This document shows positions 3,378-44,640 of a stretch of 64,000 bases of DNA, piece by piece. The stretch is from Candidatus Hydrogenedentota bacterium (GTDB lineage: Bacteria; Hydrogenedentota; Hydrogenedentia; Hydrogenedentales; G963678445), in the NCBI GenBank assembly GCA_963678445.1, contig OY782877.1, positions 1,685,778 through 1,749,777 of the forward strand, read 5' to 3'. The notes beneath the pieces were generated by a model, which was not told the DNA's origin, did not search any database, and was given only the letters and a program-made list of their open reading frames with translations. How positions within the stretch are numbered: the first letter of the stretch is position 1; every line of letters begins with the position of its first letter. Position numbers and translations under genes: made by a program.

Positions 3378-4421
3378 GTGGTGACGAAAATCATTTCAAC
3401 ATCGGTAGTAAAGCCGCGGGTATATTATTTGGATTTTGCGCGGGGCCTGGCTGTTTTTTTCATGATTATGCAACACACCATACTCATGCATGAGTATGAC
3501 GCTGGAGAAGGAGATGGGTTGCTTGGCAATGTTTTTCTGCTGCTGGGCACTGCGCCCGCCGCCCCAGTTTTTATGTTAATTATGGGGGTTTTTATTGCGC
3601 GTGCGAAAGGCGGCGCCTTGGCGTTGCTCTGGCGTGGCGTAAAGCTCTTTGCGCTTGGCTATGTATTGAACCTGTTGCGTTTTACGCTTCCACTGCTTTT
3701 GGTGCAGACCAGCGGCGTTTCTCTCCCCCCTACGGAATCGCCAGGATATTTGTTTTGGATGGTTGATATTTTACAGTTGGCGGGACTTTCGTTTATCTTT
3801 GCAGCCCCCCTCAAAACGCTTTCAGGAAGACGTTGGGTTTTTCCGGCGATTATTACTGCAGTACTATTTGTTTCGCCGTTACTATGGGGAAGTTGTCCGA
3901 ACTTCCCCCTCTTTGCGCCACTTTGGGGCACTGCACCAATTATAGAGTTCCCGTTTTTCCCCTGGGTGATTTACCCTCTGCTTGGCATGTGGCTCAGCCC
4001 CGTCCTGTTCAGCCTTCCGGAAGAACCAAAGCAAAGACGACAAATACTGCTCACCGGTGTTTTATTGATGACTGTCGGCGCACTGAGTTACGAACATCTT
4101 GTGCCGGGCGATTACCATCGTAGCGGGGCTGGAGTGCATTTTGCCATAATCGGCTTTGTCTGCGTCTGGCTGGTAGCGTGTAATTCTGTAACACAACGAG
4201 TTGATTGTACACACACCTTTTTCAAGACCATCTTTTTCTGGAGTCGGCAGGTAACAGGAATATACTTTATTCAGTGGATCTTGTTTGGCTGGAGCATGCT
4301 TGTGTGGAATCCCAATAGCATGAGTGGCTACGGTGCAACCGTAGTTGGATTGGGAGTGCTGGTGATAACGCATTGGATAATGCGACAAAAGCGCTGTCAA
4401 AAGCTATTTGCCTGGATATAA
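3378..4421 (+). CDS. Polytopic membrane protein, acyltransferase-3 / DUF1624 (HGSNAT-like) type
   Basis: About 9-10 TM helices; N-terminal YYLDFARGLAVFFMIMQH resembles the start of acyltransferase-3/DUF1624 proteins; GTG start. Confidence 0.35.
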   Translation: MVTKIISTSVVKPRVYYLDFARGLAVFFMIMQHTILMHEYDAGEGDGLLGNVFLLLGTAPAAPVFMLIMGVFIARAKGGALALLWRGVKLFALGYVLNLLRFTLPLLLVQTSGVSLPPTESPGYLFWMVDILQLAGLSFIFAAPLKTLSGRRWVFPAIITAVLFVSPLLWGSCPNFPLFAPLWGTAPIIEFPFFPWVIYPLLGMWLSPVLFSLPEEPKQRRQILLTGVLLMTVGALSYEHLVPGDYHRSGAGVHFAIIGFVCVWLVACNSVTQRVDCTHTFFKTIFFWSRQVTGIYFIQWILFGWSMLVWNPNSMSGYGATVVGLGVLVITHWIMRQKRCQKLFAWI

Positions 4422-4515
4422 GTGGTCCAAGGACCACAATCGAGGGGTATGGCCCTTGCCATCGCTAATCACAGCAATGGTTGTTATACCCCATTGAGAA
4501 ACCTTGTAAATGTAC

Positions 4516-4540
4516 GGTAGCGGCGCTAAGCCGCTACCGG
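4516..4540. terminator. Perfect hairpin gtagcggc-gctaa-gccgctac between convergent genes (bidirectional terminator candidate)
   Basis: Inverted repeat read directly; lies between the stop of the 3378..4421 (+) gene and the stop of the 4542..4688 (-) gene. Confidence 0.5.
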
Positions 4541-4541
4541 C

Positions 4542-4688
4542 TTACATCTTAAAAGCGGCAATAATCGCGATGATAAATCCCAGCAGGGTTAAAAATAGGT
4601 CGGCTACGCGAAAGGTTGCGCCGCCAATTTCTACATCGCCGTAAAGAAAATCAAGGTAGGTTTGTGTGTTTGGACTTTCTTCTTCCAT
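4542..4688 (-). CDS. Small (48 aa) single-TM membrane protein, acidic N-terminus (MEEESPNTQTYLDFLYGDVEIGGATFRVADLFLTLLGFIIAIIAAFKM)
   Basis: Internal ATG preceded by AAGGAG with a 9-nt spacer; C-terminal hydrophobic helix; same strand as and downstream of the DUF151 gene. Confidence 0.35.
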   Translation of the reverse strand: MEEESPNTQTYLDFLYGDVEIGGATFRVADLFLTLLGFIIAIIAAFKM

Positions 4689-8945: not shown

Positions 8946-8984
8946 GGACTATCTCACTCCACCTCGTGCACTTGGGGCGTATTC

Positions 8985-9464
8985 CTACGCACGCAAACGC
9001 CACGCGGCCTCTTTACTGGTATTCAGGTATTGTGCCTGTTTTTCGGTCATAATTTCACGCTCGACATCTGAAGCGTGTGTATATCCTAATAAATGGAGCA
9101 GGCCATGGCAAAAAAGAAGCCGGACCTCGTCGCGCATGGCTTGGGAATCTCCTTTGCAATAACGTTCAACGGTCTCCAAAGAGATGACAATATCGCCAAG
9201 AACACGTTCCCCATGTAGAAGTGTATCCTCTTGAGCAAAGGAAAGCACATCGGTAGGAACCGGTTTTTTGCGATACTCTTCGTTCAGGGTCGTGATAAAA
9301 GGATCGTCGCAGAAAAGCACACTCAATTCCAAGCCTGAATAGCGGGTATCATCGCATGCGCCTTCTTCGCGGCAAACGCGCTCGGCTAATCGCTGGAGAT
9401 TATCGCGGCGGTAAAAGCGTTTGCGTCTGGATTCGTTTCGTATGTCGATATGCACCATAATCAT
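8985..9464 (-). CDS. ybeY: Endoribonuclease YbeY (16S rRNA 3'-end maturation)
   Basis: HGLLHLLGYTH metal-binding motif and size about 159 aa; conserved position downstream of phoH/pgpH. Confidence 0.85.
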   Translation of the reverse strand: MIMVHIDIRNESRRKRFYRRDNLQRLAERVCREEGACDDTRYSGLELSVLFCDDPFITTLNEEYRKKPVPTDVLSFAQEDTLLHGERVLGDIVISLETVERYCKGDSQAMRDEVRLLFCHGLLHLLGYTHASDVEREIMTEKQAQYLNTSKEAAWRLRA

Positions 9465-11968
9465 GCTCCTCCCGATAAGGGGATCACGTTTTTATTTTTA
9501 CCCGAGTCCTTGTCAGCGTCGGGGTACGATACCCGGGTGTGCAGCATCGTAATGATGCGTCGGCTAACTACTTCTTTAATAGTATCAAGTTGCTTCAAAG
9601 TCAAGTTACTGTCGTCGAATTGGCGTCCTTCGGAGCGCGCGGCTACGATTTTTTCGACGAATTCGCGAATGCGTTCCTCGTTGGGGTTTTTAATGGACCG
9701 CACACCGGATTCAACGGCGTCGCAGATCATTAATATCGCCGTTTCGGGACTTTGGGGTTTGGGGCCGGGATAACGAAAGTCTTCTTCGCGCACGTCGTCA
9801 TGCTTGTTTTGTTCGAGTGCTTGCTGGTAGAAGAAGCCGATCAGACATGTGCCGTGGTGTTCCAAAATGCCGTCTACAATCGGCTTGGGAAGGTGGTAGT
9901 TGCGGGCCATCTCAACGCCTTTGAGTACGTGGGAGGCAATGGCGCGCGCACTCAGGCGCGGTGCAAGTTCGTCGTGAATGTTGTAGCCCTGCTGGTTTTC
10001 GGAGAAGTACTCTGAGCGCCACATTTTGCCGATGTCGTGGTAGTAGGCGCAGACTCGTGCCAACAGGCCGTTGGCGCCAACGGCGTCTGCAGCAGCTTCG
10101 GCCAACTGCCCCAGCATCAAACTGTGTGCGTAGGTGGCCGGGGCTTTGATGGCAAGCTGGCTCATTACTTCATTGTTCAGATCGGAGTATTCGAGTAATT
10201 GGATATCGGTGGTAATGCCGAAGAGACGTTCGAAGGGGGACAGCAGGCCGGGCACGGTTAGCAGGCAGACGCCTCCGTTGAGAGCGATGAGCAGCAGGCG
10301 GCGGCCTCCGGTTGCTGCGACAAGCGAGTTGGTGGCGAGCAGGATTGCGGCCATGGCAAACAGACCCACTAATGTGGCTTTGATCGATGCGGCGGCCATG
10401 TCGCTACGACGACGCACTTTGTAGATACTGAAAACGCCCGCAAGGGACATGGCGCCAAGTACGAAAAAAAGACGCCAATCGTATCCATACTGTGCGGAGA
10501 CTAGCAGGGCAATCAAAATGCTGAGCATCGCAGCCAGACGCACGCTGACCAATACGGCGTACAGTATGCCTACTGCCGCTACGGGCAGCAGGTATCCGGT
10601 GGGTTGGAAGTAGAGTGCAATTCGTCCAACGATCAGGGTAATACACATCAACAGTAGCGCCAGGTTTACGTGGGCGAGGGAGTAGGTTTCTGTATTTTCC
10701 CCCCGTAGTAGTCCCATACTTCGAAAAAGACCCGTAAGCACCATGGCGGCCAGTATCATGTGTGAAAGCAGTATGTTAATAATACGCTGTTGTGGCTTTT
10801 GCTCGTTTTCGAGAATAGACAGGTAGGTATTTACGTCGGAACGACTCTGCGCCGTCCAGCGTTTACCCCGGTCCTGGATGATTTCGCCGGGCTCGATGCT
10901 TTTCATGACCGGCGCAATGGATTCTGAAGCACGTTCGAGCGCACCCGCCATAAAAACCTTGTCATAGCGGATCGTGTCCACAAGTGCGGGCTGCACCATC
11001 GGCAATCCGGCATCGTGCAGCTTGGCCCATTCCACCTGTAGCTCAAGGGCAACGGATTTTGCGGTTTCCTGCAGGCGCTGACTCAACACTTCTGCAGCCT
11101 CTTCCACATCGGGCACTTGCTCCATGGCAAGCTGGCTGGAGACGTGCTGATCGTCCTGTAACATGTCACGCAGGATCACGATTTCCTTGTCGCCCCCCAT
11201 AGCAGCGGTACGCACGCCTTGGTGGAGTACGTAGCGGAGGCTTTCAAGCGCAAGCGTTTCCAGATGCTCCGCCAGCGAGAAGAAAAAAGGGGGAACCTCT
11301 TCTGGTTGGAGTGCAATCACAGGCCGGGGAAGCTCTTGGGGGGGTATGGCTTCGCCTTCCGTCTCCACTTCTGCGGGCGGGGTCTCGGCAGGGGGGGCAA
11401 ACTGACGTTTGGGCAAGCTGTCTTTGTCTGGGGTCAACCACAAGTTAAGCGCTGCTGCTTCCGGCAAATCTGCCCATTCAGGCGTTTCTTTGAGTGCCGC
11501 GACATGCGTTGCAACCACGGTCTGAACAATGTCTTCAGCGCGTTGTGTGGAATCCGACTGACGCAGGGTCTCAAGGATGGCATTTTGTATTGCTGGACGC
11601 TGCTCGCGGATGCGCGTGATTCGATTGCGCACGATGGAAAGCTGACGGTTAACCAGATCTTGATCGATTCGATAATGGGGGGGCACCTTTTCCCGTGCCT
11701 CCTCGCGTGCTTGTTGGGTCGCTTTGAGGTTGGGCGCTTCAAAATAGAAAGCCGTTCGGATTTCTGTCGATGCAATGGGGGCGTCCATATCCGCCACGAG
11801 CATTTTTTCGCTTTCGGGCAGACGCGTGAGTGCGGCAACAATGATGACATAGGCGACCAGCACCACTAGCATCTGCGCAGGACGGCGCAATGGGGTGCGT
11901 TGCTTTGCTTCTGGCACGCGTTGGGCGAAACGACCTACGCGCGGTTTTCGTTGGCCAAAGCCTATCAT
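9461..11968 (-). CDS. pgpH: 7TM-receptor with intracellular HD hydrolase domain (7TMR-HDED, PgpH/YqfF-like)
   Basis: Large N-terminal extracytoplasmic region, seven TM helices, C-terminal HD domain (YHDIGK...); 4-nt overlaps with ybeY and phoH. Confidence 0.75.
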
Positions 11969-13348: not shown

Positions 13349-14671
<1,323 letters not shown>

Positions 14672-14957
14672 CTACCGCAGCCCAACGCAGGGAGCAAGTA
14701 GAAACCTTCACCGGCCCAGATAGCGTTTCCCTTCCGAATCAGGGAGCGACACGAGTATTCATGCCCACTCTGATGGTCCTCATCTCCGGAGAATGTCGAC
14801 TATCCTTACATTATATAATATCTACACCGCTCCTGGGGAACGGTCTTCTTTTTTTGTGAAGCACGCAGCACTGTCTATCGGCTAAGCGACTGCGTATGCA
14901 CTGCATTATAATGCAGATGCCCCCTGTATTGCAGCAATGACGCCTGCATGTCGTCGA

Positions 14958-15758
14958 TTATCCCTTCCAGGGGAAAAGATAATCGCGCAGCCCCCGGTTC
15001 AAATAGTCATCCTGCTCATCGTATTCAACAGGCAAACGCCTGTTGGGCGCTGCAACGCCTTGCGCTATTTGCGTTTCGATATATGCATACTTGCGCGAAA
15101 GCATTTCATACGCGCTGCACCGTAACACGACATAGGCGGGCAGGGCGAAAAACAGGGCAAATGGTGGAAATAGCGACAGAACAAGCAGTATCAGGAGTAC
15201 TATCGCTAATTTCATACAAAAAAAGGGGTTATCCAGCAGTAGAAGTATGGAAAGCCGAAAAATAGCCCACGGCCGTTCCTCTTTAAATACTAATGCGGGA
15301 CCGCCCAAAAATGCGGCCAAGACCGCACCTATGACACCCCAAAAGGCCACGCTGCTAAGCGCATATCCCAACCAGAGAAGGGATTGTGGGACACGCATCG
15401 CGTAGAACCACACGCTTAGACTCAGACAAAACAGCACAGCCATGTATTCGTAGGACAGAAGCACGGCCTGTGTGGCATGGCGGCGCATACCGCTAAAAAA
15501 GGTGCGTAGCGTGCTATCCTGTAGTTCGATGCATTCCTTCACCATCGCCGCCATGCCCACGTTAAGGATCGGCAAGACTCCGAGGAAAAGCAGAAGCACG
15601 AGCATTCCGGCAAAAGCCCAGGCGCCACTTGCGCATGCCGCATAGAGTAGCATCAATATCGGCACCAGCATGAGCATACAGAACATATTGGCTAGCAGCA
15701 GCTTCCCCAAGTGGTCGTAGTAGACCCCAAAGGCGATTTTCAACGTGCGCGTTACCAT
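14958..15758 (-). CDS. Polytopic membrane protein (DUF624/YesL-like)
   Basis: 6-7 TM helices; start set at MVTRTLKIAFG because the longer TTG-start ORF runs through the repeated leader element. Confidence 0.4.
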   Translation of the reverse strand: MVTRTLKIAFGVYYDHLGKLLLANMFCMLMLVPILMLLYAACASGAWAFAGMLVLLLFLGVLPILNVGMAAMVKECIELQDSTLRTFFSGMRRHATQAVLLSYEYMAVLFCLSLSVWFYAMRVPQSLLWLGYALSSVAFWGVIGAVLAAFLGGPALVFKEERPWAIFRLSILLLLDNPFFCMKLAIVLLILLVLSLFPPFALFFALPAYVVLRCSAYEMLSRKYAYIETQIAQGVAAPNRRLPVEYDEQDDYLNRGLRDYLFPWKG

Positions 15759-15781
15759 ACCGAAACCAAAACCGTGTGTCG

Positions 15782-15886
15782 TCCTAAAGCGGTCCAGCGA
15801 CCACAAGGTGCTCAAAGGCACACCCAAGAAATATGGTCCTTACCGTCGCTGACCGCAGCAAAAAGTTCTTTTTTTTATGACAGCTC
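15782..15886 (-). promoter_or_regulatory. Copy B of the repeated promoter/leader element (minus strand), 23 nt upstream of the ATG at 15758
   Basis: The reverse complement reads agctgtcataaaaaaaagaactttttgctgcggtcagcgacggtaaggaccatatttcttgggtgtgcctttgagcaccttgtggtcgctggaccgctttagga; about 90% identical to copy C over about 60 nt. Confidence 0.65.
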
Positions 15887-15914
15887 TTCAGATGCCTGGC
15901 ACCAACAAAAGGGA

Positions 15915-17131: not shown

Positions 17132-18439
17132 TCAGTCTTTTAGCGCAACCGTATACCCCAGGGCGCACACCGTCTGCACCAGGGCTTCGTATGATACGTT
17201 TTCCCCGGTAACCGTGGCTTCGCCCGTAGCCAAATCGACGTGTGCGGTTTCCACGCCTTCTATTTCACGTAATGCGCGGGTCACGGTGGCTACACAGTGT
17301 GAACATCGCATGCCGTCGATCTGGAATGCGTGTGTTTGTGTGGCGCTGTCGAGCGTCTTTTCATTATCTTCCTGCGCTTCGGCAGATGAATGTGGATGGG
17401 CGAACCAACGGCTTCCCAGCAAGACGCCTAATAGAAGCAACGCGGCAATGTGGTTCCACCAGGGCGAAGCTGCGGCATGGGCAGCATGCGTCTGTAGTAT
17501 GGCGCCGTGTGGGGGGAAAGCATTAAAAATCGCATCAAGGCAAAGACCGGAAAGCAATGCGCCTAGCGCAACGGTAATGATGTAAATGATCGCTGTACGG
17601 CGTCCAAGTACCTTCCAAATAACCGATATGGCGGCGGCGTTGGTGGCGGGACCGGTGATGAGAAAGACAAGCGCCGCCCCTGGCGAGGCGCCCATGTGCA
17701 TAAAACCGACCGCAATGGGAATGGATGCAGTGGAGCAGACGTAGATGGGGATGCCTACCAGCATCATGAGCAGCATGGCGACGAGTCCGCCACCCAGATA
17801 GGCCGCAAATGCATTTTGCGGTAATAGCGCCGAAATCAATGCGGCCAGAATAACGCCAAATAGCAGTGCGCGGGAAATATCGCCGGGAAGCGTGATGAAA
17901 CCATAGCGCAGGGCGCGCATCCATGCAGGATGTTTTTCTTTATCCGCGCAACACGCCGCAGTGCATGCCGCAGACACTTCCGAAGTCTTCGCCTCATCTA
18001 TCTTCTGCCGTTCGCTATCCCCCCATGCTACGGCCATGCCGCCAACCACGCCCATAATTAAGGCGGCAAGTGGTCGAAAAATGGCAAAGACCGGCCCCAG
18101 GAGGGCGTAGGTAGCCAGAATGGAATCTACACCGGTTTGTGGAGTAGACAGTAGAAAGCCGGTTGTCGCCCCTCGTCCCGCCCCATGGTTGCGGATGGAG
18201 GTGGCTACGGGGAGAACGCCGCAGGAACACAGGGGTAATGGCACGCCGAAAAGGGCGCTTTTAAATACGGGAAGAAAGCCGCGTCCTCCCAGATGACGTT
18301 CTACCCATTGTGGGGACAACGCCACGGAAAGACAACCGGCAATGAAAAAACCAAAGAGCAAATACGGGGCCATTTGTCCTAATACTTGCCAGGCTTCTAT
18401 GGCCGTTGTTGTAATGAAATCCGTCAGCATATCTAACAA
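17132..18439 (-). CDS. ArsP/DUF318-type permease fused to a C-terminal heavy-metal-associated (HMA) domain
   Basis: TM core with PLCSCGVLP (ArsP-like CSC motif), Cys cluster CTAACCADK, C-terminal GMRCSHC...ATGEATV ferredoxin-like HMA fold. Confidence 0.6.
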   Translation of the reverse strand: MLDMLTDFITTTAIEAWQVLGQMAPYLLFGFFIAGCLSVALSPQWVERHLGGRGFLPVFKSALFGVPLPLCSCGVLPVATSIRNHGAGRGATTGFLLSTPQTGVDSILATYALLGPVFAIFRPLAALIMGVVGGMAVAWGDSERQKIDEAKTSEVSAACTAACCADKEKHPAWMRALRYGFITLPGDISRALLFGVILAALISALLPQNAFAAYLGGGLVAMLLMMLVGIPIYVCSTASIPIAVGFMHMGASPGAALVFLITGPATNAAAISVIWKVLGRRTAIIYIITVALGALLSGLCLDAIFNAFPPHGAILQTHAAHAAASPWWNHIAALLLLGVLLGSRWFAHPHSSAEAQEDNEKTLDSATQTHAFQIDGMRCSHCVATVTRALREIEGVETAHVDLATGEATVTGENVSYEALVQTVCALGYTVALKD

Positions 18440-18906
18440 GTCTCCTGCGCGGCCTTACTATTCTATAGCAACATCTACGGCTAACCCGATATTCCAATAG
18501 TGAAACCCAGCCTTGCCCCTACGCAGTCAGAAAGGAAAAAAGGAGTAGTAAGCGTAGTGATTTCCAGGCCTTCGCCCTGATGGCAGGTTCGTTGTCGTCT
18601 CTGAGTGAACCCGTTTTGTTGCTTTTGTCGCTGTTTTTTTAATCTTTGGCCTTATCCCTCATGATTTTATGCATATTTGCCTTCATGGTACAATGCAACA
18701 GTGCAAAAAACCATAAAATACACATCGAACTTTGAAACGGTTAGCGACCGCAGCGAAAATTTCTTGATTACGGACAGGCTTTAGGCTTTAAGGCATTCCA
18801 GAGACCACAATAAAGTGGCCGGCGCCAGTCACAACCGCATGACACTTACGTATCTCTGGCAACGTGGGTTTCATTTTATACCATAATTTTGTGACTGACA
18901 CTTCAA

Positions 18907-19010
18907 AAGCTATCATAAAAAACGAAATTTTACTGCGGTCAGGGAAGGTAAGAATCATATTTCTTGGGTGTGGCCCTGGCCACCTTGTGGTCGCTGGACC
19001 GCTTTAGGAT
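18907..19010 (+). promoter_or_regulatory. Copy C of the repeated promoter/leader element; ends 24 nt before the ATG at 19035
   Basis: aagctatcataaaaaacgaaattttactgcggtcagggaaggtaagaatcatatttcttgggtgtggccctggccaccttgtggtcgctggaccgctttaggat; upstream gtgact N17 cataaa looks promoter-like. Confidence 0.65.
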
Positions 19011-19034: not shown

Positions 19035-19790
19035 ATGTGCGCATCTGAATCGACAAATGAACTTAAACCTTTGCGTTTGGGGGAACCTTCGCCACGCGTG
19101 TTACGTTTTATTCGTAGCGCGGCGCACCTTTCCCTGATAAGCATGCTGGCGTTGTGGGTGCTGATGTTTTTGATCGAGGGGAAACCCTATGATCAGGTAT
19201 GGCAGGTGGTACTGGCGCAGTGCATGGGAGGGCGTGCCGGCGGGGTTGGCTTGGGCCTCCAAAAGGGTTTTAGTCCCTACTATCTTTTTTTTCACAGCAC
19301 AATGTATGATTTTATTATTATGTTGTACGTCTATCCCCTTTTTGTGTCGGGCTACCAATACATCTCTAACTGGCCGTTTATAGGAAAATTCTTCAAAAAA
19401 ACGCATGCGCTGGCCTTGCAGCATAAAAAGCATATTGCTCCTTATGGCGCTATTGGCCTTATGCTTTTTGTCGTTTTTCCTTTTTGGAGCACCGGACCGT
19501 TGGTAGGGGTTATCGTAGGCTACCTGATCGGGCTGCGCACCTGGGTTACTTTCAGCGCCGTCATCATTGGTAATATGAGCGCGGTGGCGGCATGGATTTG
19601 GGCCTATGATCGTTTGCAGTCCTGGAGCCCAAAACTCGCGTTGATTTTGCTCATTATCATCTTTGTACTCGCCATGGGCGGCACCTTCTTTGCCCGTTTC
19701 CGTCGTGCTCATCGCCATAAAGACGCTGTAGCCCACGAGGAGGAGGTAGCGGAAAAAACGACGGTGGACTCTGAAGAATCCAAGGGCTAA
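19035..19790 (+). CDS. Membrane protein (about 6 TM), possibly COG2426/small-multidrug-export-like; function unknown
   Basis: Hydrophobic profile; weak resemblance only; charged C-terminal tail. Confidence 0.45.
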   Translation: MCASESTNELKPLRLGEPSPRVLRFIRSAAHLSLISMLALWVLMFLIEGKPYDQVWQVVLAQCMGGRAGGVGLGLQKGFSPYYLFFHSTMYDFIIMLYVYPLFVSGYQYISNWPFIGKFFKKTHALALQHKKHIAPYGAIGLMLFVVFPFWSTGPLVGVIVGYLIGLRTWVTFSAVIIGNMSAVAAWIWAYDRLQSWSPKLALILLIIIFVLAMGGTFFARFRRAHRHKDAVAHEEEVAEKTTVDSEESKG

Positions 19791-21167: not shown

Positions 21168-24100
21168 TTAGCGACGGCGACGCCGCAGGGATAGAGCGCC
21201 GACAGCGGCGCAAAGTCCGGCCAATACTCCCAGGCCCGCCATACCCGCAGCAGGAATGGCCGGAAGTACGGTCAAGTTTGCCTCGAGCATTAGCACATCG
21301 CCGTTGCTGTCGGAGACGATTAGTTGATAGACACCTGCATTCTCTTCATAGACGGCAGGTATGAAGAAACTCAGTAAATCATTGGTCTTTGCAGGCGATT
21401 CCACAGGACGGCCTTCGTATTGCCATTCCAGGGAAAACGGAGGATAGCCTCCATGCGTAATCACAAAGAATGTGTGTGAATTCCCTGCAGTCACCTCAGC
21501 GTCCATGGGTGGTTCAACCACTTGTAAATGAGGTGCCAGCTCAAGTTGAGCGCGTGGCGTACTGTATGTTACGCCGGAATAGGTGGCCTCACACCAGTAG
21601 GAACCGGCATGTGCAAAACCAAGCGGTTCGAGGATGAACTCAGGCGCATCTTCGCCCACGTCATGTATGGCTTTGCTCATCGTGTCGGCCCATTTCCATT
21701 GATAGTGCACACTGCCCACGCCACAGGCGGGCGCAACGGAGAAGGTTTGGCGATCCCCTACGTAAGCGCGGGTATCTTCAGGTTGTTTTGCAAAGCCGCA
21801 CCAGTTTTCGATGGTGTATTGGGCGGTGTCTCCACCTGCGTAATACAAACCGGTCAAATCCTGCACGTCGGCCCCCAACAGGATACCTATCGTCCCCTCT
21901 GCATCGGGTTCCAGCAACTCAACTTGCACGGTATAAACGGGGTCATCATAAAGCAGCATAAAGGAGGCCGCGCTTGCCAGCGTCCCGATGAGAGTAACAT
22001 CGGCTTCGGTAAACGTAGGCGCGACAGGGTCGTCGAATGTTACGACAAAATCTACCTGGGTGTGGGAAGTCGGGTTTTCGGTTGCAAGCACAATCTCGGC
22101 CCGGGGCGGTTGCGTGTCCACAATCAGTTCGTCTACGGTCGCATCGAAGCCCGTACTTCCGCCACTGGTCGCAGCGACTACGACATCGTAGACTCCTTCG
22201 GCAAGCGGCGGCTGGATGGTGTCATCGGGCAGTACCCACTGGCCATTACCAAGATTTTGTGCTGCATAGGTTGTACCGCCCACAGCAACAGAGAGGGTTG
22301 CGTCCAGCTTGTTTACCGTACCCGTCAGCGGCGGGGTAGGATCGGTAGTAAAAAGCTCATTTATTGTCACCACGGGCACGTTCAAATCGATGAGAAGCTC
22401 GTCGGTTGTTTTATCCCGTCCCACGTTGCCTGCCGCATCTGTTGCTGAAACACCTACATTATAGGTCGTGGGAAAGAGTTCTGTCAGCACACCGCTTTCA
22501 AGACGCCATGTGCCATCGCCCAGATTGAGGGCGTCGCAGATCTGACCGCCAACGGTGACAACAATGGTGGCGGTAGGGTCGTCAACGGTCCCTGTCAATG
22601 CTGGGCTTGCACTGCCTGTGATTAAGGTATCCACACTAACTATAGGCTTGAGCACGTCCACCACAATCTCGTCTAACGTGAGATCCTGTGTTTCGTTACC
22701 CACGGAATCGCTCGCCGTCGCTACGACGTCATAGACGCCAGGTAATAAAAGAATGGAGGAGGCGGGCAAAACCCATGTGCCGTCGCCCTGGTTCACGGCA
22801 AAAACGGTGTATAACCAAACTTGCACTAAAACCGTTGCGGTGGGGTCGTTCACAACACCGGAAATTGCCGCCATGCCATCATTGGTGATGAGTGAATCCA
22901 CCCCTACTGTAGGCGCAATTGTATCGACAACAAGTTCGCCGGTCGTTGTATCGTGCAGGGTGTTTCCGATGGTGTCTGTCACGGTGACAGCAACATCGTA
23001 AATACCGTCTGGCAGGGTAGTCACCTGGTTGTCGGCGATACTCCAATGTCCATCGCCATCATTGACCGCCGTCAATGTTTGTCCGGCTACCGTTACACTG
23101 ACTGCTGCGGTGGGGTCGGCCACATCTCCTTGCAAGGGAGGGGTGCGATCGGTGGTCCCCAGATAATCTACGGTGGGAAGGGCTGCATAGAGATGGATGG
23201 TGTCACTTAAAACGGAGGATTCGCCGTATGCATTTTTAATTTTTACGAAAAGCCTCTTTTCTCCATCGCCTTCGCTGAGCTGCACCTGCGGTTGTGACGT
23301 CAGAGGAACCCAGGATGCGCCATCCATGGAAGGGGTTTCACTAGCCATGAAATGGGTCGCACCATTCATGTGGGTCATATCAAGTTGGACTGTGGAATTG
23401 ATGGAGGTTTCCGCATCTTGATTGATCACAAAATCAAAGAGGGTTGGGGGTACATGAAAGGTAATCTGCTGCTTAGGGTCGGTGAAGTATTCTTCTTCAA
23501 GGAGACCATCGAATGGAACCGGAATGGCAGGAATGTTGATGTTGAAATTCACGTCGGTCAGGTTGGCGATGTTTAGCCGAATGGCGACTGTGGGTTGAAG
23601 GGTCACATCGGGCTCAAGTTGAACCGCGGTGGCGATATTGGCAACGGTGACGTCGGCATCGGCGGCTGTGATGTTGCGATGCTCACCGTCGGAGGTAAAA
23701 TTTCCTCGATCGGTTTCCAAGCGTTTAAAGGTGGCCTTGACTTGATCTCCTGCGGTCAGACTGACTCCGATTTTACCGGTGACTACACCGCTGATATCGA
23801 TTGGAATGTCGAAAAGGTCGATATCATTCAATGCCGCTGCCAGCATGACCGTTTCGCCAAGATTATATGCGGTGATCGTTTTTTCATCTTGCAGGCGCAA
23901 CGTTTCGGAGGGAACAATAGGGAAATCGTCTTCCAGCGTGTATTCCTGTCCGAAGGCTTCGAAATGAATCCGGTATTGGCCACCCAGCGAAATACCGATG
24001 TTTTGCTGTACGGTGCTTGGCGCGCCTATAAAATGCAAATCGCCTAAATCCATCCCGATCGGACAGTCTAGCTGGGCTGCGCCATTGAGGGTGCCGGCAA

Positions 24101-24326
24101 AGAGGATGCCGTCGACGCCACCGGTAAAACGCACATCCGCACGCCCTATACCAAAATCGAAGCCTCGCCATCCGGTATCAAAATGCCAATCGGGGAAGCC
24201 TTCTTCCATTTCCAGGGGGGCATGCTCTTCTTCATACGATGCTGCAAAACCCGCCATGGGAAAAATAGCAAGGAGCCCCACAAGCAATCCTCGCGTCACG
24301 CGTTTCTTTCCTTCTTGAGCTGTCAT
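21168..24326 (-). CDS. Large secreted Ig-like-repeat surface protein (1052 aa): signal peptide, beta-rich N-domain, about 5 bacterial Ig-like repeats, 2 Ig I-set-like domains, C-terminal tripartite sorting tag
   Basis: Signal peptide [15 protein letters not shown]; about 95-aa repeats ([12 protein letters not shown] / [11 protein letters not shown] / [11 protein letters not shown]); C-terminus [33 protein letters not shown]. Confidence 0.7.
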   Translation of the reverse strand: [1052 protein letters not shown]

Positions 24327-24347
24327 AACCTCACATCCCTTTATCGC

Positions 24348-27300
24348 TTAGCGCCGCAGACCACGTCGCGTCATTACACCCAATACTGCCAACACTGCAA
24401 CCAGTGTGATCAGACTCCACACACTGCTTGCCGGCACGCCTGTTCCCACCACAACCAAGTGTTTCTGGGTAACCATCTTGATTTCTTCGTAATTTGTCAC
24501 GGTCAGCGACACGGTATATGCGCCATCGTGTTTATAAACATGCACTGGATTCTGTTCCGTGCTCGTGCCGCCATCGCCAAAGTACCAGTACCATTCTGCC
24601 ACCGGCTTGACCGTGGTCAGCGTCCGGTCATAGAACTGTACGGAAAGCGGTGCACGACCTGTAGGTGGAAATGCTTCGAAATCGGCCTCCATGGACGACT
24701 TGGTGTATTTACCGATGAATTGAATCGTGTCACCCACTTCGAGAAGACGCGATACGGTTGCTGGTGTCGGCGCCCCATACCCTTCTAATGGCTTCCAGGT
24801 CAGGCTGAGGGGGCCGCTGGGGATCTGGTTCAGGGTGACTGTTCCCATGCCTTCGTAGATTCCACCGTCACTGTCGGTAAGGGTCCACTCTGCCGCAGCA
24901 GCAGTTACTTTGATTTCCACCGTACCGGTTTCGCGTGTATAGGTGAAGGGGTAATTGTTGGTAATGTTGCGCAACACCATCACCGAGGTGTCTTCGGGGG
25001 CAATCCATCCGGGTATGGGCTTGAACTTGACCATCCGTTCACCATCCGTACTGGCTAGCATCGCGCCACTGTCACGCCATTCGCCACCGGTAACGCGCCA
25101 TTGTGCACCCGCATTGCGGACGGCTTCTGGTAGCAGCGTTACGGATAGAATCCCTTCGCCCTCACCCAGAATGGGGATATAAGAACCCACCAATGTCAGG
25201 GTTTCGCCTGCACCCAGGGTCGCTGTTGCAGGGTTCGGTTCTGGCATCAGGTAGGTGTTCACATAGCCCCAAATCACCTTCAGCTCACCTGTAGGAATGT
25301 CGGTCAATGTCGTATCGCCCAAACCGGTATGGGGAGCACCATCGCCATCGATTAATGCCCACGGCGCCCCTTCCGGATCTACGTTGATGATTACCGTGCC
25401 CAGTTCACGCACATATTCGTAGGTAAGATCGTAGGGCGTGTTGCGCACAATGGTCATTGAGGCCGTCTCTGGTGCAATCCAGCCGGTCATGGGGGTAAAG
25501 GAAAGGGTAGCTTCCCCATCCGGCACTTCGAGTGTTGCACCAGTATTCTGCCAGGCTCCACCGTTAAAACGCCATTGCGCACCCGCGTCGCATACGCGGG
25601 CTGGGGTCAGATTCACGGTAAGATCGACGCGTCCTTCTCCGATGATAGGGGGGTAGTTTCCGGTGAAGGCAACCGATGCACCGGGAAACAGAACCAAATT
25701 CTGGGTGCTGGGCGTGGGGAGCATATAGGTTGCGAGCGGTTGCCAGGTAAGCGCAATTTCGCCTGTAGGCACATTTTCCACGATCGCACTTCCTTCACCG
25801 GTGTGACTTTCCCCGTCGCCATCGATGAATGACCATGGCGCATCCATGGGTGAGGCATAGATTTCTACGGTACCCGTCTGACGTGTCCAGGTTTCTGTCA
25901 GCTCCAACAAGTAGTCTTTGTTGATCGTGACTGTTTTTTTCTCCGGCGCTGCCCAGCCTTGTACGAGGTTGTAGGTAATGGTGTGTTCGCCCACTGGGGT
26001 AGCAACAAAGCTTCCGCTCTCCTGCCATTCTCCATCGTCCAGACGCCAGCGTGGGGTCTGAGCCAATACGCCATCGGGGGCAAAGTCAACTCGCACTGCA
26101 CCTTCATCAGGAATTTCTCCCATGCATGCAGGATAGTTAACAAAAACACTCTTTTGATAGTTCTCGTGCGTGCCCAAGCCTTCTGACAGTCCAATCAGAC
26201 CACCATAAAGATCCAGCTCCAGCCAGGTGATCACGATACGGCCGTCGAAGAACATCTCGATCTGAAAGTTAACCTGATTTTCCGTGATGATATTGCTCAG
26301 GAAAACCTTGTCGAAGGTAACAACGACGCGATTCGTATACTGTTTCCAGTAAACCGTGCCGCCTTGATCGGGTTTCAGGTCGGTAAAGATGCCGGAAATG
26401 CGTGGCAGGTCAAAATGCGCATCCACACTCGGATCATTTTCTGTATCAGGTGCGGTAAAGGTGATGTAGCCATTACTGCCAATGAAAAATGAGCTGTATT
26501 TTTCACCATACAGCGCTACCTGTTTCCCGTCGCTCAGCGTAATTTCAACAGCATCATTGTCTCCCAATGTCACCGGGGTGCCGTCGTAGGGACTGGTACG
26601 ATAATTACTCGTATCATCGACGCAGGCGACGTAGTAATTGTTGGAAAGATTGGGCGTGAAGAGTACGCGTTTATAGCTTACGTTGTTGTTGCCCATGGTG
26701 AAATGCTGTGTAAACCAATCGGTTGGCTCACCAGGACTGGGCTGACCGGTAAAATTAAGTTCTGATTTTGTAAAGGGGAAATCGCGCAACTTAATCGGCG
26801 TCCACTCCAGACGTGTAAGGAAGTTATCCGCATTCTCGCCCGGCCATTCCCAACGCCAGCCCAAGATTCCGAAGAAAACAACTGGGTAGACTTTTGCTCC
26901 CAGATTTAGCTCCGAATCGTTTTGGTAGGTCAGCTCGGTGCGATACCCTGCGGGGGGAATCACGATATCACGCGTTTCGTGTTCCGTTGTATACTGGTTC
27001 CCATCACTCAAATCGATGCTGTCGCATCGCAAGTAGCCATTGGCTACTGCGGCAATGTCCAGCGCAACGCCTGCTTTGGGAAGAGGCACCCAGTCGGGCA
27101 AGGTAATAAGCCCTCGGGTAATAAGTAGGGAAATAAGGTCTAAATTTACCACTTGCGTGCGTCCGGCTTCATCGCGCAATTCTGATGTTTCGTCCAGCAG
27201 GTAGGTATTGAATTCATCACGATCAGAAGCCACCATGTGAAAATCAGGCACGTAGGGGATATCGACAATAAAGGGATCTATCCAGGAGATGGGGATATCA

Positions 27301-30300
27301 AAGGCGAGCTTGAGGAAGAATTCTGCGCCGAAATAGAATCCCCAGTTGCCTGATGCGGCTCCCGCACTCAGCTGATTTTCATTAGCCAAGGTGAAATTAC
27401 CGCTGACGTTGGCGTCGTAGTTGAAGCCGGCCCCGGCGTTAAGACGCACCTGGATCACAAAACCACCGGGTTCGTCGCCACTGCCACCGGGAATCCAGCC
27501 TGAATCGAAACCGAGGTTTTCCATCCCTTGCGGCGGCACCGTAAATTGCACCATGCGCGTGATTGGATCATCGGCTTTTTCATCTGTCGCTTTAAGAGGA
27601 GAGAGGGGCGATTCGTCTGCCGGTTTAGTCCAAGTCTTCGCTTCGCCCGCCAATTCTTCGATTGGAAAATTTGGTTTTTCGTACTGATATACGAAAATTT
27701 GCATAATAGATCCGCCGGGTTCGTCGAGGCGGATGGAAAGGGGACGAATGCGACCATCTTTGAGTTTTTCTTCTGTGCGGCGCTCTGAAATCATTCGCTG
27801 CCCGTTGCTGTAGACAACCACTTCGAAGGGCTGCGCTCCTGCACTTTTCGGCAAGCGGTAGACTATTTCGTAATTTCCTGCTTGCACCGCGACCTTTTCG
27901 CGACCATCGCGCTGGATTGCACTTTTGGCGCCAGTAGCCTGTTGCGCCGCCAACAGTTCGCGGTGTTGCGATGAAAAGCCTGGGTTGCCGACACCTTGCG
28001 CACCCACACGCACGACACGACGCTCTGTTAATCCGTCGTCGCCGTAGTAGGCCACTTCAACGGAGCCATTTGTCTTCGCCAGTGCTGTCAATGCTTCGTC
28101 GGAGATTTGTGGATTGTTGGTATGCGCGGAATAAATCACCGCGTATTCGCCATAGGCGCTCATTCCCATGCCCAAAATAGCCACAAACAATACTATACGC
28201 ATGTATTTTGCATACGTGGATTTATGTCTCAATATAAATGCGCCTCCCAAAGCACAGCATAAGGCAAGCAGTGCAAGCGCAAATCCGTTCATTGTCGGTA
28301 CCATATACTCTACCTCGACTTCGATTTCACCCGTCTCACAGCTTTCCAACTCATCCGCCACCATACACATGTATACGCCGGCGTCGTCCATTTCGGCCGT
28401 ACCAAGGCTCAATACGGGACCTTGGAGCATGCCGGTATCTTCTATTTCGCCTTTCCCTTCGAGCTTGGTCCAATCATAGGTAACTTGGCCGAAAGCGCCG
28501 GTCACCGTGACTTCAAGGGAAAACAGATCGCCTTCTACGACTTTTTGCTGATTCCCGCCATCCACAGAGATGGTCAGCGCGTTTGGATTTAAGGCAATCC
28601 GATCGGTGATGGATTCTTCGGAGAGGTTGCCTGCGCGATCGCGCAGGGATAAAAATATGTCTTTGTAACCTTGACCGGGAGAAAGCTCCCAGGACAACAT
28701 TTCGCTGAAGGGCTGCCATGCGCCCCAATTCTCCCCGTCGTCACTCAAGCGCATCTCGATTACACCGCTACCACTCGCACCTTCGTCGGCTGTCAGCTTT
28801 AATTGCACGTCCGTTACGCGGGTGAAGGGGGCATTTTCGTCGATGACTATCGTACCTGCCGGCGGTGTCATGTCAATCGCAAGCAATCCAGCGCTTTCGC
28901 TGCTGCCAATCTGTCCGAGTACGTCGGTGGCCGTGATGCTTAAGCTGGCAGGACCGTCTACGTCGATAGAAGGGGTAACGGTATAGGTGTATTCATAGCT
29001 GCTGCCTTCATGGGCCGCATAGCTTGCCGCGTGGCCATTGACGGTAACTTCGGGCAATCCGGGTAGGCCGTTGTCATCATTTACGGTGAATGCAATCGTA
29101 ACTACATCGTTGGCCTTGGCGAATTCGGGATAGACGTTGACCGCACTGATGGTGGGTATCGTGCTGTCAATCAGCAACGCTGTTGTATTGGTAAGTGTGT
29201 CGGCATTCCCGACGCTGTCGACAACGGAAATAAGCACTGTGGCGGGGCCGTCGGGATTAATTTCGCCATCGACTGTATATCGGTAGGTATAGGCATCATC
29301 GGTTTGCGTTTCAAAATCCGCTGCATTTCCGTTTATCAGCACGGTGGGATAGGGCTGTACAGCGGTTGCGGCATCGATTGCTGAAAAGGTCAGACGGACC
29401 AGATCGCCATCTTTGGCAACGTTGGGATTTGCCTGCAGGGAGCTAATCTCGGGCGCTTGTGTATCCACGGTCAGCACATCATTGAAGACGGGGGCGGCGA
29501 TGTTGTTTACCATGTCGACCGCGTTTATCTGAATGGCTGCAGCTCCATTGGGGGAATCCGTTACTATGGAATAGGTGAATGTGTATTCGCTACCTGAGTG
29601 ACTGGTAGGCGCGCCAAGGTCTATTCCATCAACGGTGACGGTGGGGATACCTACTAATGGGCTGTAGCTATCCTGAAGTGTGAAGTGGATCTCAACCGTA
29701 TCACCGGCCTTGGCCATAGCGGGCGTTGCGGTGAGTCCGGTTATATCGGGAGGGGACAGGTCAATGGTAAACGCTGTTTCCGAGCGAAGTTCGCCCGCAT
29801 TACCGGCTACGTCTACTGCTGAGAAAACCACCGTTGCAAAACCTTGCGGGGCGCTAGCCGGTACCGCGTAGTCATAGGTATATGCGTTGCCGACAACCAT
29901 GGAGGGTGCGCCTACTACAACGCCTGCTACCGTGAGCATTGGTGCTGCGGAAAGTGCACTCACGTCCTCTACGCGGATGGAGAAGGTAACTGTGTCATAC
30001 GCACCTGCCAGGTAGGGTGTGATGGCGAGATCGTGGAAAGCAGGCGCCGTATTATCGATGAACAATATCGTGGTTTCTGTCGTCTCGGAACTGTTTCCCG
30101 CGGCGTCTGTTACCTGCACTTGCACAGTCGCCGCACCTTCTGGTGCATTCGATGGCAGGGTGTACATGTACGTGTATTCATCACCCGATGCAGATGATGG
30201 CGCGCCTACATTAGCTCCATTCACTTGCATGAGCGGGGCCGAAGGAAGGCCATTTGCATCCGTTGCTTCTACTTTCAGTGTTACGCGATCGCCTGCCCGG

Positions 30301-31967
30301 GCTGGTGAATTCAGGCAGGATACCTGCTGAATCACAGGCGCGGTTCCGTCGACAAAAAGCGTATTTGTGGATGTCTCCTGGCGGGTGTTTCCCGCACGAT
30401 CGACCGCATTCACGACGAGGGAAATGGGACCATCGGACGTAGCGGTCGGCACGGTGTACGCATATGTATATACATTGCCCGACGTAGCGGTCGGCGCACC
30501 CAGATCGACGCCGTTTGCGCGCATGGTCGGTGTGTCGGCAAGGCCATATACATCGCTCACGGTTACCCGCAATGTCGATGCTGTTCCGGGTTGTACATAA
30601 GCGGGATCTGCCTGAAAATTCGTGATGGTCGGCGGGGTGTCATCGATGGTCAACAACGCATTGGACGATTTGCCCTGGCTATTGCCTGCGGTGTCAATCG
30701 CCAATACCTCAATCAATGCCGCGCCTTGTGGAGCGTTAGTGGGCGTGGTGTAGGTATAGGTGTACACATTGCCCGCTGTCGACGTAGGCGCTCCGATAGA
30801 AACCCCGTTTATTGTCATCGTAGGCGCACTTGTTAACGCCACATTATCACTCGCCTCTACGGTGAGGGTTACAACGTCACCGCCTTGCACATATTGGGAC
30901 GAAACCGTCAGTACACCGACAACGGGGCGTGTGGTATCCAGCACCTGAATGGCGATATCTTCTTCATGGTACCCATTGTATGTTGCCGCATCGGTCACCC
31001 GCACGCGGATGGTATGACTGCCTGCGCTTCCCCGATCAATTAAGGTGGCATCGGCAATAGCGACTTCGACAGTGGTGGCGGTGGAAGCATTCAACGCAAA
31101 ACGTCCCCCTGCTGAATCCACCAATGTCCAGGTGTATGGCTCCACTCCATCCGCATCTGTTGCCTGTAACGTCCCCAGCAACGTTCCGTTAGCGTCCGAA
31201 TCCTGCACCGTCAATGCATTGGGCGCAATATCCGTCGGCGGCGCACTGTCCACCTTCAACACAATCGCCCCCATCGTTCCTTTGTCTGGCAGGTTCCACC
31301 CCGTCGTCAACGCTGTACCATTCAAGCCCGTCACCACCCCCATTGCACCTCCGTTGCGGTCTCCAAACCAGCCACTCACTTTCGGCCAACGCCGGTAGCC
31401 AAGTGTTTTTGTGCCGCCGCCTTTTATACCGGCTTCGTCCATTTCGTCCTTGGTGCTTACCAAGGTCACCAGCACTGCGCCCGCCTCGGCCTGTTGCGCG
31501 GTAAAGGAGACTTCCGGGTCGTCGCCATACCCACCCTGGGCAGCAATGACCGGTGTATCCAGATCGACTCCTGAAAAGCAATAGAGCCCACTCGTTTCCG
31601 GTTCTGTATCCCCTGAGAAGGCCAGCGCCACTGTTTGTGCGCCCGTGGGGGGATTGATGCAGTAGAATAACTGTGCGCGTTCATCCTCGCCTTCAAAATC
31701 CACCGCCTCGGTCATCGCCATCCCCCCCAAGGTGGCTGAGGCTTTACGGTGATTGCGGTTGGTCACCCCTAATATGGCCACTTTGGTGCCTGCGGGAATC
31801 GATGCGGTCGTCCATGACCAGGAGCTACCGCTGTTGGTGGTTTCCGCGCTGAATCCGGATTGGATATCGGGACCATTGAGCAAGGTAATCGCCCCGTAGC
31901 ATGGCATAATTACACAGGCAATGAGCATGCCTGTCCAGCATCCCGAAAAGACATTCCGAGCTGTCAT
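24348..31967 (-). CDS. Giant 2539-aa ORF: in-frame fusion of two adhesin-like genes. Module a (about aa 1-1248) is signal peptide + cadherin-like domain + about 8 Ig-like repeats + 2 Ig domains + sorting tag. Module b (about aa 1256-2539) is signal peptide + large domain + about 7 Ig-like repeats + PKD domain + sorting tag
   Basis: Junction ...[54 protein letters not shown]... at about 28200-28226; PKD motif [32 protein letters not shown]; C-terminus [30 protein letters not shown]. Confidence 0.7.
   Translation of the reverse strand: [2539 protein letters not shown]
24770..26270 (-). repeat. Alternating coding repeats in adhesin module b (GAQWR.NGGAWQ..GA modules interleaved with G.V.I...P..APW..IDGDG..HTG.G modules)
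   Basis: Protein-level periodicity in the ORF translation; boundaries approximate. Confidence 0.45.
28950..31000 (-). repeat. Tandem array of about 285-bp coding repeats (about 8 copies) encoding about 95-aa Ig-like modules (P..IS.L.A.P..AK.GD.V.L.F...D......PTV.ING......T...AYTY.YTV) inside adhesin module a
   Basis: Periodicity seen at protein level in the ORF translation; boundaries approximate; nucleotide copies are diverged. Confidence 0.5.
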
Positions 31968-36410: not shown

Positions 36411-36486
36411 TGCCGGCTAGCCAAATTGGTAAGGCACCAGTTTCTGGTACTGGCGATTCCAGGTTCGAGTCCTGGGCCGGCAGCCA
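36411..36486 (+). tRNA. tRNA-Gln (anticodon CUG)
   Basis: Cloverleaf folded by hand: acceptor tgccggc/gccggca with the U1:A72 pair typical of tRNA-Gln; anticodon stem ccagt/actgg; loop ttCTGgt; T-arm ggttcgagtcc; CCA encoded. Confidence 0.8.
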
Positions 36487-36522
36487 TCCATACCCGGTTT
36501 AAGACCGGTTCACATACGCGGT

Positions 36523-36598
36523 GGCCCCTTCATCTAGTGGTCTAGGATGCAGGATTCTCAGTCCTGTCACAGGGGTTCGAACCCCCTAGGGGCTGCCA
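36523..36598 (+). tRNA. tRNA-Glu (anticodon CUC)
   Basis: Acceptor ggcccct/aggggct; anticodon stem cagga/tcctg with loop ttCTCag; T-arm aggggttcgaacccct; CCA encoded. Confidence 0.8.
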
Positions 36599-44100: not shown

Positions 44101-44514
44101 CTATTCCTCGGCGCAGGGCAAAGTTTCCTGTTTGAGCCCCGTAGCGCTTCGCAGGGGCATCTTCCATAGGGCATGGCATAGGAATATTTGGGTCAGTAGG
44201 GCGCCAGCGCTGTTGGCGATAATGTCGAAAAAATCGAAGGAACGCCAGGGTAGGAATAACTGATAGAACTCTTCGGCGATGCCGTAGCCAATACTGAAGC
44301 AGAGGGGAATATAGAATAGTTTGCGCGCATCCACTGTGTTGTTGGAACGACGCATCCCTACGCAGACTACACCGGCAAGCGCCGCGTACATGCTCATGTG
44401 CACCAGCTTGTCGATGGGAATGACGGGTTTGGGGCGCGGGGTTACCTGAAGCGAGGATAACCAGAAGATAACACCGCAGCAAAGTATGGTAAGGAGGTAA
44501 TACCGTAATTTCAC
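44101..44514 (-). CDS. VanZ-like family membrane protein
   Basis: About 4 TM helices; DKLVHMSMYAALAG and RSFDFFDIIANSAGALL resemble VanZ blocks; GTG start chosen downstream of the leader-like element; start uncertain (ORF table gives 44577). Confidence 0.45.
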   Translation of the reverse strand: MKLRYYLLTILCCGVIFWLSSLQVTPRPKPVIPIDKLVHMSMYAALAGVVCVGMRRSNNTVDARKLFYIPLCFSIGYGIAEEFYQLFLPWRSFDFFDIIANSAGALLTQIFLCHALWKMPLRSATGLKQETLPCAEE

Positions 44515-44582
44515 AGAGCATGTTCCTTTTAAAAGCTGTTTTAACAATTTTAGTACGGCACAGTTGCATCGGCACATATTGC

Positions 44583-44640
44583 CGGTACATTGGTCGTAGC
44601 AAAACTCCGTTTTTTTATAATAGCTTTTGAAGCGTCAGTC
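44583..44640 (-). promoter_or_regulatory. Copy D (5' promoter half only) of the repeated element, upstream of the VanZ-like gene
   Basis: The reverse complement reads gtgactgacgcttcaaaagctattataaaaaaacggagttttgctacgacc; compare copy C gtgactgacacttcaaaagctatcataaaaaacgaaattttactgcggtc. Confidence 0.5.

Follow-up and report, generated by a model that had tools for sequence, protein, structure and literature searches.

The sequence at positions 18907-19010 of the analyzed window, a 64-kb stretch of DNA from a Candidatus Hydrogenedentota bacterium, is probably one copy of a high-copy, lineage-specific, modular interspersed intergenic repeat family of a BOX- or BIME-like type. The family was represented by ~16 copies in ~98 kb of sampled DNA, or ~1 copy per 6 kb, and accounted for ~2% of the sampled sequence. 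The element is small (~120 nt) and non-coding, all of its copies were located in spacers, and it is a modular composite with an optional inner module, an arrangement that is BOX-type by architecture and not by homology. A first-pass annotation of the window had described the same sequence as a promoter with a structured leader, repeated upstream of four genes of a possible envelope regulon. The copies, their neighboring genes, their predicted structures and their distribution among related genomes are detailed below.

Copies of the element in the window

A search with an HMM built from the four copies reported initially, and then iterated, yielded a total of six copies in the window (A, B, C, C', D, and E). 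All four initial copies were recovered at their reported places with a similarity far above chance. The 5' box AAGCTRTYATAAAAAA occurred four times with at most one mismatch (0.13 expected in the window), and the 3' box CGCTGGACCNCTTTAGGA had three exact occurrences (0.12 expected). The flagged copy, C, is a full element covering 18888-19009 on the plus strand (nhmmer E=1e-32), with a P module at ~18888-18925, an R module at ~18926-19009 and the terminus CTTTAGGA. It contains promoter-like hexamers recognized by consensus match only (18891-18919, +), namely GTGACT (18891-18896) and CATAAA (18914-18919) separated by a 17-nt spacer. Two palindromes follow on the same strand: the optional Hp1 (GTGGC-CCTG-GCCAC, 18970-18983) and the terminal Hp2 (GTGGTC-GCTG-GACCGC, 18987-19002), the latter overlapping the 3' box (18992-19009). 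Downstream of copy C, gene C starts at 19035 and encodes a membrane protein with a Pfam match to Sm_multidrug_ex.

Copy C', a full but diverged element (18790-18905, -; nhmmer E=1.5e-12 after iteration), is positioned head-to-head with C and is directed toward an ArsP/HMA permease gene (17132-18439, -). It has its own promoter-like GTGTCA-N17-TAAAAT, and the 5' ends of C' and C overlap by ~18 nt at the quasi-palindrome GTGACTGACAC. The spacer between the permease gene and gene C (18790-19009) thus holds two divergent promoter-like sites. Copy B, also a full element (15782-15905, -), fills the spacer between a SurA-like gene (stop at 15915) and gene B (ATG at 15758). Copy A (1004-1104, +) is full but diverged, with two internal deletions, and lies upstream of a lipoprotein-like gene at 1114. 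In copy D (44532-44645, -), convincing similarity is confined to ~44596-44645, which covers the P module and the beginning of the R module; the 5' end of D runs over the stop codon of an ORF at 44635-45999, and a VanZ-like gene (44104-44577, -) is located downstream.

Copy E (4419-4498, -; E=0.012 by an HMM not containing E) consists of the R module only, without the 5' box and without Hp1; the promoter-like site in front of it is another one, TTTACA-N16-TATAAC. At its 3' end, copy E extends over the stop of a convergent acyltransferase gene (3378-4421, +), to whose 3' end it is antisense. Upstream of copy E is a 48-aa ORF (4542-4688, -), apparently hydrophobic on visual inspection and annotated as a gene in the sister genome. 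Between this ORF and copy E lies a strong hairpin (GGTAGCGGC..GCCGCTACC; 4505-4688, - for ORF and hairpin together).

Five of the six window copies (A, B, C, C', and D) each face a gene. The downstream genes encode a lipoprotein-like protein (A), a protein with no Pfam match (B), the Sm_multidrug_ex membrane protein (C), and a VanZ-like protein (D). The initial assignments of the C and D genes, as encoding a membrane protein and a VanZ-like protein, were confirmed, and the DUF624-like assignment of gene B found no Pfam support. The statement that the element occurs four times, always in the orientation of the gene, does not describe the window, which has two more copies: C', head-to-head with C, and E, antisense at a gene 3' end. 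Because of copy E, the rule that the element is always upstream in the orientation of a gene fails within the window itself. Furthermore, the description of the copies as near-identical holds for B and C alone, and at 85% identity over 93 nt (15782-15874 versus 18917-19009), not ~90%; A is much diverged and contains indels, and D shares only approximately the first 50 nt. Copies C and D were 94% identical over 32 nt, a match that does include the shared GTGACT-N17-CATAAA as first described. Aligned together, the four reported copies had a mean column identity of 62%.

Modular anatomy of the element

According to the consensus alignment, the element is a mosaic of a 5' P module and a 3' R module with the consensus TTAGTGACTGACATTTCAAAAGCTGTCATAAAAAACGAAATTTTTGCTTCGGTCAGGGATGGCAAGGGCCATATGTATTGTCTGTGGCGCTGGCCACTTTGTGGTCGCTGGACCGCTT(TAGG). 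The P module is A/T-rich and comprises ~40 nt (TTAGTGACTG..AAAAGCTGTCATAAAAAACGAAATTTT). The R module comprises up to three short G+C-rich palindromes of one type, RTGG(T)C-NNNN-G(A)CCAY, in direct orientation, and the element terminates in CTTTAGG. The middle palindrome, Hp1, is optional: it is missing in copy E, in the copy C of a third strain (locus L008) and in a copy at position 14633 of locus L027 in the sister genome. The modules also occur separately, as P-only copies (D and L027 9101-9200) and as R-only copies (E and L031 20802-20841). Most copies carry TTAG or TTTAG both at their 5' junction and at their 3' end, and TTTAG is common to the whole family.

The termini of the element differ from those of a MITE. 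The first 40 nt of the consensus scored 11 against the reverse complement of the last 40 nt, in comparison with 10.1 +/- 1.8 for shuffled sequences (149 of 500 shuffles reached at least that score), so that no terminal inverted repeats were detected in the consensus. Similarly, no copy-specific target-site duplications were found in the flanks of the copies, since the longest word shared by the two flanks averaged 4.3 nt within the same copy and 4.5 nt between different copies. Hp1 (GTGGC-NNNN-GCCAC) and Hp2 (GTGGTC-GCTG-GACCRC) match the 5' GT(A/G)G pattern of REP sequences, with 84-85% of cells paired, and are only 14-16 nt long inside a longer unit. An inverted pair as in REPINs was not present, the palindromes being direct; a long-range helix between segment 1 and the 3' box was paired in 74% of cells without covariation. 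Since the tests for a MITE (inverted repeats and target duplications) and for a REPIN (an inverted pair) both failed, the repeat is placed only under its general kind. The alternative of a MITE-like dispersed repeat, which the first-pass annotation had itself mentioned, is thus borne out as far as a dispersed repeat is concerned and not in the structural features of a MITE.

Reading frames across the copies are broken by indels. A conserved leader peptide was considered and rejected, as the frames differ among copies through these indels; one frame ends at the TAG of CTTTAGG. The repeat also contains GCGGT(C/T)AGCG (window 18934-18947 and 15847-15860), which loosely resembles the ops/JUMPstart motif, GGCGGTAGCGTG. 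An identity with ops/JUMPstart was rejected on account of a one-base insertion and the lack of a match to the Rfam JUMPstart model, and the resemblance is treated as a coincidence.

Copies beyond the window and their orientation

The search was extended with the HMM beyond the window, and further copies were found. Across 20.8 kb, the sister genome and the window differed by 151 mismatches and no gaps (L007 versus window 9035-29790), an identity of 99.27%, and a third strain (L008) had an average nucleotide identity of 94.4% to the window. Locus L027, a 24.5-kb segment of the sister genome ~450 kb distant from the window-syntenic region, contains eight copies. Three of these lie on the minus strand within the same spacer, toward the 3' end of a gene (8982-9094; 9101-9200, 5' part only; and 9403-9524). 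A copy at 14633-14733 (+), just behind the strong terminator of a gene for a 1516-aa protein, is tail-to-tail with a copy at 14785-14885 (-), and the canonical promoter of ndk lies outside this pair. The others are located at 18053-18174 (+), upstream of a histidine kinase gene; at 22195-22311 (-); and at 23950-24072 (+), between two convergent genes. The 5' end of this last copy is abutted by a 14-nt fragment (23937-23950) identical to the 3' end of the element (GCTGGACCGCTTTA), right after the stop of a gene for a 517-aa protein; the fragment could reflect a nested or tandem insertion, or a preferred target.

Flanking sequence at the two ends of the window (4.5 and 4.9 kb) contributed two partial copies. 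A further copy, at another locus, was seen only as the spurious 95-aa ORF P0044, the sole protein-database match to a synthetic protein made of translated element frames. Extrapolation from the ~98 kb sampled of a 3.5-5.1 Mb genome would give roughly 600-800 copies genome-wide.

The family is spread through intergenic DNA in both orientations, with head-to-head and tail-to-tail arrangements and same-strand clusters. Six of the 16 copies do not face a gene start and lie in convergent spacers, tail-to-tail pairs or same-strand clusters. Approximately 10 of 16 copies face a gene start, compared with ~8 by chance (one-sided binomial p ~0.23). Genes adjoining the copies include those for a CHASE8 histidine kinase, ndk, mazG, and a GH43 protein, with no common theme. 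An envelope regulon with a shared promoter, as first suggested, is contradicted both by these neighbors and by the copies that face no gene start. The interpretation of the element as a leader fails because some copies occupy convergent spacers, whereas others are paired tail-to-tail or clustered on one strand.

Tests for RNA structure and promoter-like sequence

RNAalifold returned no consensus base pairs on an alignment of 11 copies. Covariation in the three hairpins and in the candidate long-range helix was not above that of shuffled controls; per helix, 67-258 of 500 shuffles equaled or exceeded the observed percentage of paired cells or covariation score. Single-sequence folds gave z-scores of -2.1, -0.9, +0.7, and -0.9. 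An attenuator model, in which segment 1 would pair alternatively with Hp1 or with the 3' box, was rejected for lack of covariation. The difference in Hp1 that had been put forward as compensatory (gtgC..Gcac versus gtgG..Ccac) is present in the sequences as described. It amounts to one exchange of G-C for C-G, at one pair and in one comparison, without statistical support. The proposal of a structured cis-regulatory leader is thus at odds with the absence of a consensus structure or covariation among the copies, of a constant sense 5' position, of conservation at orthologues and of any Rfam match.

In the P module, GTGACT-N17-CATAAA, with TG two bases upstream, plausibly represents an imperfect sigma-70 promoter of the extended -10 type. 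The best call of the promoter scan at copy C was TTGTGA-16-TATCAT (18889-18916), with 9 of 12 matches. Promoter-like sites in the region were not in excess over shuffled sequences (4 versus 3.1), and the earlier reading of the 5' part as promoter-like stands as a real but modest likeness. Two signals at L027 of the sister genome offer a comparison: a textbook intrinsic terminator with a 12-bp stem, AGGGCTGTGGGA..TCCCACAGCCCT (14552-14620), and a canonical TTGCGC-N18-TATAAT promoter upstream of ndk (14895-14935). The promoter-like and terminator-like parts of the repeat are clearly weaker than this terminator and the ndk promoter.

Divergence and constraint

Paralogous copies were 40-81% identical, with a mean of 62%. 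Orthologous copies B and C were 89% identical between the window and the third strain, compared with 93-98% for coding DNA and 89-98% for other spacers. In this strain, an 18-nt deletion removes Hp1 from copy C, and CATAAA is changed to CGTAAA. Between the 99.3%-identical genomes (0.73% overall difference), copy B had five mismatches in 120 nt, a density ~6x the average, and one of the copy B differences between the sister genomes breaks Hp2. The copies decay at about the rate of the faster-evolving spacers. Their age (mean identity 62%), together with their recognizability over the full length, could reflect some constraint or gene conversion. No near-identical pair was seen among the copies compared, and the three strains, within the 20 kb open to comparison, showed no copy that was present in one and absent from another.

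Distribution across genomes and databases

The element was not detected in related genomes: 64 kb of non-redundant sequence from three relatives (L009, L011, and L028) gave no matches at E<=1, and the conservation that the first-pass annotation had anticipated was absent from this sample. Orthologues of gene C (58-63% amino acid identity, L009-L013) had no element upstream, and none was present at the locus of the orthologue of the 2539-aa protein (53%, L028 and L029). A scan for exact matches to the 3' box gave six in the GTDB species genomes (596 Gb) and 13 in JGI metagenomes, all of them single chance matches lacking the remainder of the element; neither collection apparently includes the host species. 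Searches against Rfam, run with gathering thresholds on the entire window and with a cutoff of E<=10 in the vicinity of two copies, returned only two tRNAs and noise. The element consensus had no match among plasmids and phages.

Comparison with known repeat families

BOX elements of Streptococcus pneumoniae and BOX-type repeats of S. suis share several characteristics with the present family, in that all are small, interspersed, intergenic and modular, with an optional inner module. The inner module of BOX may be absent or repeated, copies adjoin genes in either orientation, and stem-loops are predicted if the element is transcribed (PMC3049150). BOX elements were first taken for regulatory motifs owing to the genes that they adjoin, and their outer modules can stimulate downstream expression (PMC3049150). 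In contrast to BOX, tandemly expanded inner modules were not observed in the present family, and the host is an unrelated Gram-negative bacterium (OmpA, YhdP); the two are likened by architecture, not by sequence.

Correia elements are bounded by 26-bp terminal inverted repeats and duplicate a TA target. These elements (CREE, Neisseria) and promoter-bearing MITEs resemble the present family in size (~100-200 bp), in copy number (>100 per genome) and in a mostly intergenic location, often directly upstream of genes. Correia elements and other MITEs carry sigma-70-like promoters able to drive neighboring genes (PMC10969869). The present family differs in having neither inverted repeats nor target duplication, and its promoter-like site is found at one end only, pointing inward.

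REP, BIME and REPIN sequences share with it short, G+C-rich, imperfect GT(A/G)G palindromes, an extragenic location, a copy number in the hundreds (by extrapolation in the present family) and a mosaic arrangement with other motifs. REP-type repeats are often found at gene 3' ends or between convergent genes (PMC3116915, PMC3337134). Unlike in REP and REPIN sequences, the palindromes of the present family are direct and are joined to a 40-nt, A/T-rich promoter-like module. A fixed pentanucleotide is a feature of both the present family (TTTAG at both ends) and bcr1, and the two differ in host phylum and have no sequence similarity. The bcr1 element of the Bacillus cereus group is ~155 bp long, has no clear transposase relative, is flanked by TTTAT and is transcribed with its neighbors. 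The pentanucleotide of bcr1 has been read as a target duplication, a status that the flanks of the present copies did not bear out for TTTAG.

Origin and possible function

The family would behave as selfish or neutral repeat DNA of the BOX/BIME/REP/MITE kind and not as a dedicated regulatory site, and it probably did not spread by classical cut-and-paste transposition with inverted-repeat ends. Where copies face genes (A, B, C, C', and D), the P module and hairpins may add to transcription or join the 5' UTR, as in Correia and BOX elements. By analogy with these, any effect on neighboring genes would be a side effect of where a copy landed.

The proposal of joint control of envelope genes, by a regulon-specific promoter plus structured cis-regulatory 5' leader or by an operator, draws on the five gene-facing window copies, several of whose genes encode membrane or exported proteins, on the promoter-like hexamers and on the exchange of G-C for C-G in Hp1 between B and C. 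It is extremely improbable, as 6 of 16 copies cannot be leaders and those between convergent genes already largely refute it; the other neighbors are ndk, mazG, a histidine kinase gene and GH43, no Rfam match, consensus structure or covariation was found, Hp1 is dispensable, and the element is neither kept upstream of orthologues nor conserved in excess between strains. A broader possibility is a domesticated multi-copy RNA or portable-promoter cassette with a genome-wide role, in which the P module would be the promoter of an ~85-nt RNA with three stem-loops ending in Hp2 and UUU; one possibility under this reading is the titration of an RNA-binding protein through repeated (A)GGA motifs (CAGGGA, AAGGA, and UAGGA). 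Consistent with such a cassette, the P module is always 5' of the R module, copy E has exchanged its P module for TTTACA-N16-TATAAC yet retains R, the tail-to-tail pair at L027 has no gene to drive and if transcribed would give element RNA only, and the family remains recognizable despite a mean identity of 62%. However, the terminator is weak (a 6-bp stem and three U), covariation is lacking, the -10-like hexamer is without the usual final T in a lineage that does have a canonical TTGCGC-N18-TATAAT (ndk, sister genome), P-only and R-only fragments exist, and the divergence between strains looks neutral. We regard this cassette as decidedly unlikely.

A third alternative concerns the mechanism of spread only. 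The present family would consist of non-autonomous DNA, moved as a single-stranded hairpin by an HUH/Y1 transposase, either in a REP/RAYT-like system or as an IS200/IS605-derived PATE (for general properties, see PMC3116915 and PMC3337134). Elements of these two sorts have no inverted-repeat ends, enter on the 3' side of a constant TTAG/TTTAG and leave no target duplication. The features of such a PATE are found in part: terminal inverted repeats and target-site duplications are absent, TTAG is located at the 5' junction of most copies with the same TTAG/TTTAG at the 3' end, and G+C-rich palindromes starting with GTGG form hairpins near the 3' end. Furthermore, the GCTGGACCGCTTTA fragment fused to the start of the next copy (L027 23937-23950) is as expected for an insertion just after a resident end. 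This mechanism is nonetheless unlikely, given that no conserved hairpin was found near the 5' end, the palindromes are direct and not inverted as in REPINs, no strand bias was apparent and no young copies were seen. A selfish or neutral repeat, without a dedicated regulatory role, remains the preferred interpretation of the family.

Annotation artifacts and other features of the window

The repeat misleads gene callers. Gene B was called as a 289-aa protein from a TTG inside copy B (15758-15827), and its plausible start is the ATG at 15758. P0044, the 95-aa "protein" noted above, is largely a translated repeat copy. Elsewhere in the window, two adjacent genes on the minus strand (21168-31967) encode giant Ig-like/PKD/Big_13 surface proteins of 1052 and 2539 aa. 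The 1516-aa protein at L027 10001-14551 of the sister genome is a paralogue, orthologues with 42-54% identity are present in uncultured relatives, and the two-gene arrangement is kept in L028. Adjacent tRNA-Gln(CTG) and tRNA-Glu(CTC) genes (36411-36598, +) were the sole Rfam/ARAGORN matches in the window. Gene content includes GH123 with FG-GAP, a fucosidase, many AP_endonuc_2 and GFO_IDH_MocA proteins, OmpA, and YhdP, and suggests a PVC-type glycan degrader.

Significance

The main value of these findings is corrective: what resembles a regulon when 64 kb are considered loses that appearance in a larger sample of the genome, much as in the history of BOX elements. In addition to misleading gene callers, the repeat could mislead the discovery of motifs and non-coding RNAs in this lineage, and it could serve as a marker for strain typing. 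For specialists in mobile DNA, a promoter-like module without inverted-repeat ends or target duplications is a modest curiosity. A more far-reaching, and highly doubtful, possibility is that several hundred portable transcription units, each a promoter with an ~85-nt, three-hairpin, (A)GGA-rich RNA, are used collectively by the host. They might act on a single RNA- or DNA-binding regulator as its distributed sponge or landing pad, or serve as a uniform 5' UTR cassette placing many unrelated genes under one signal. If true, this would constitute a repeat-borne regulatory network in an uncultured glycan-degrading bacterium.
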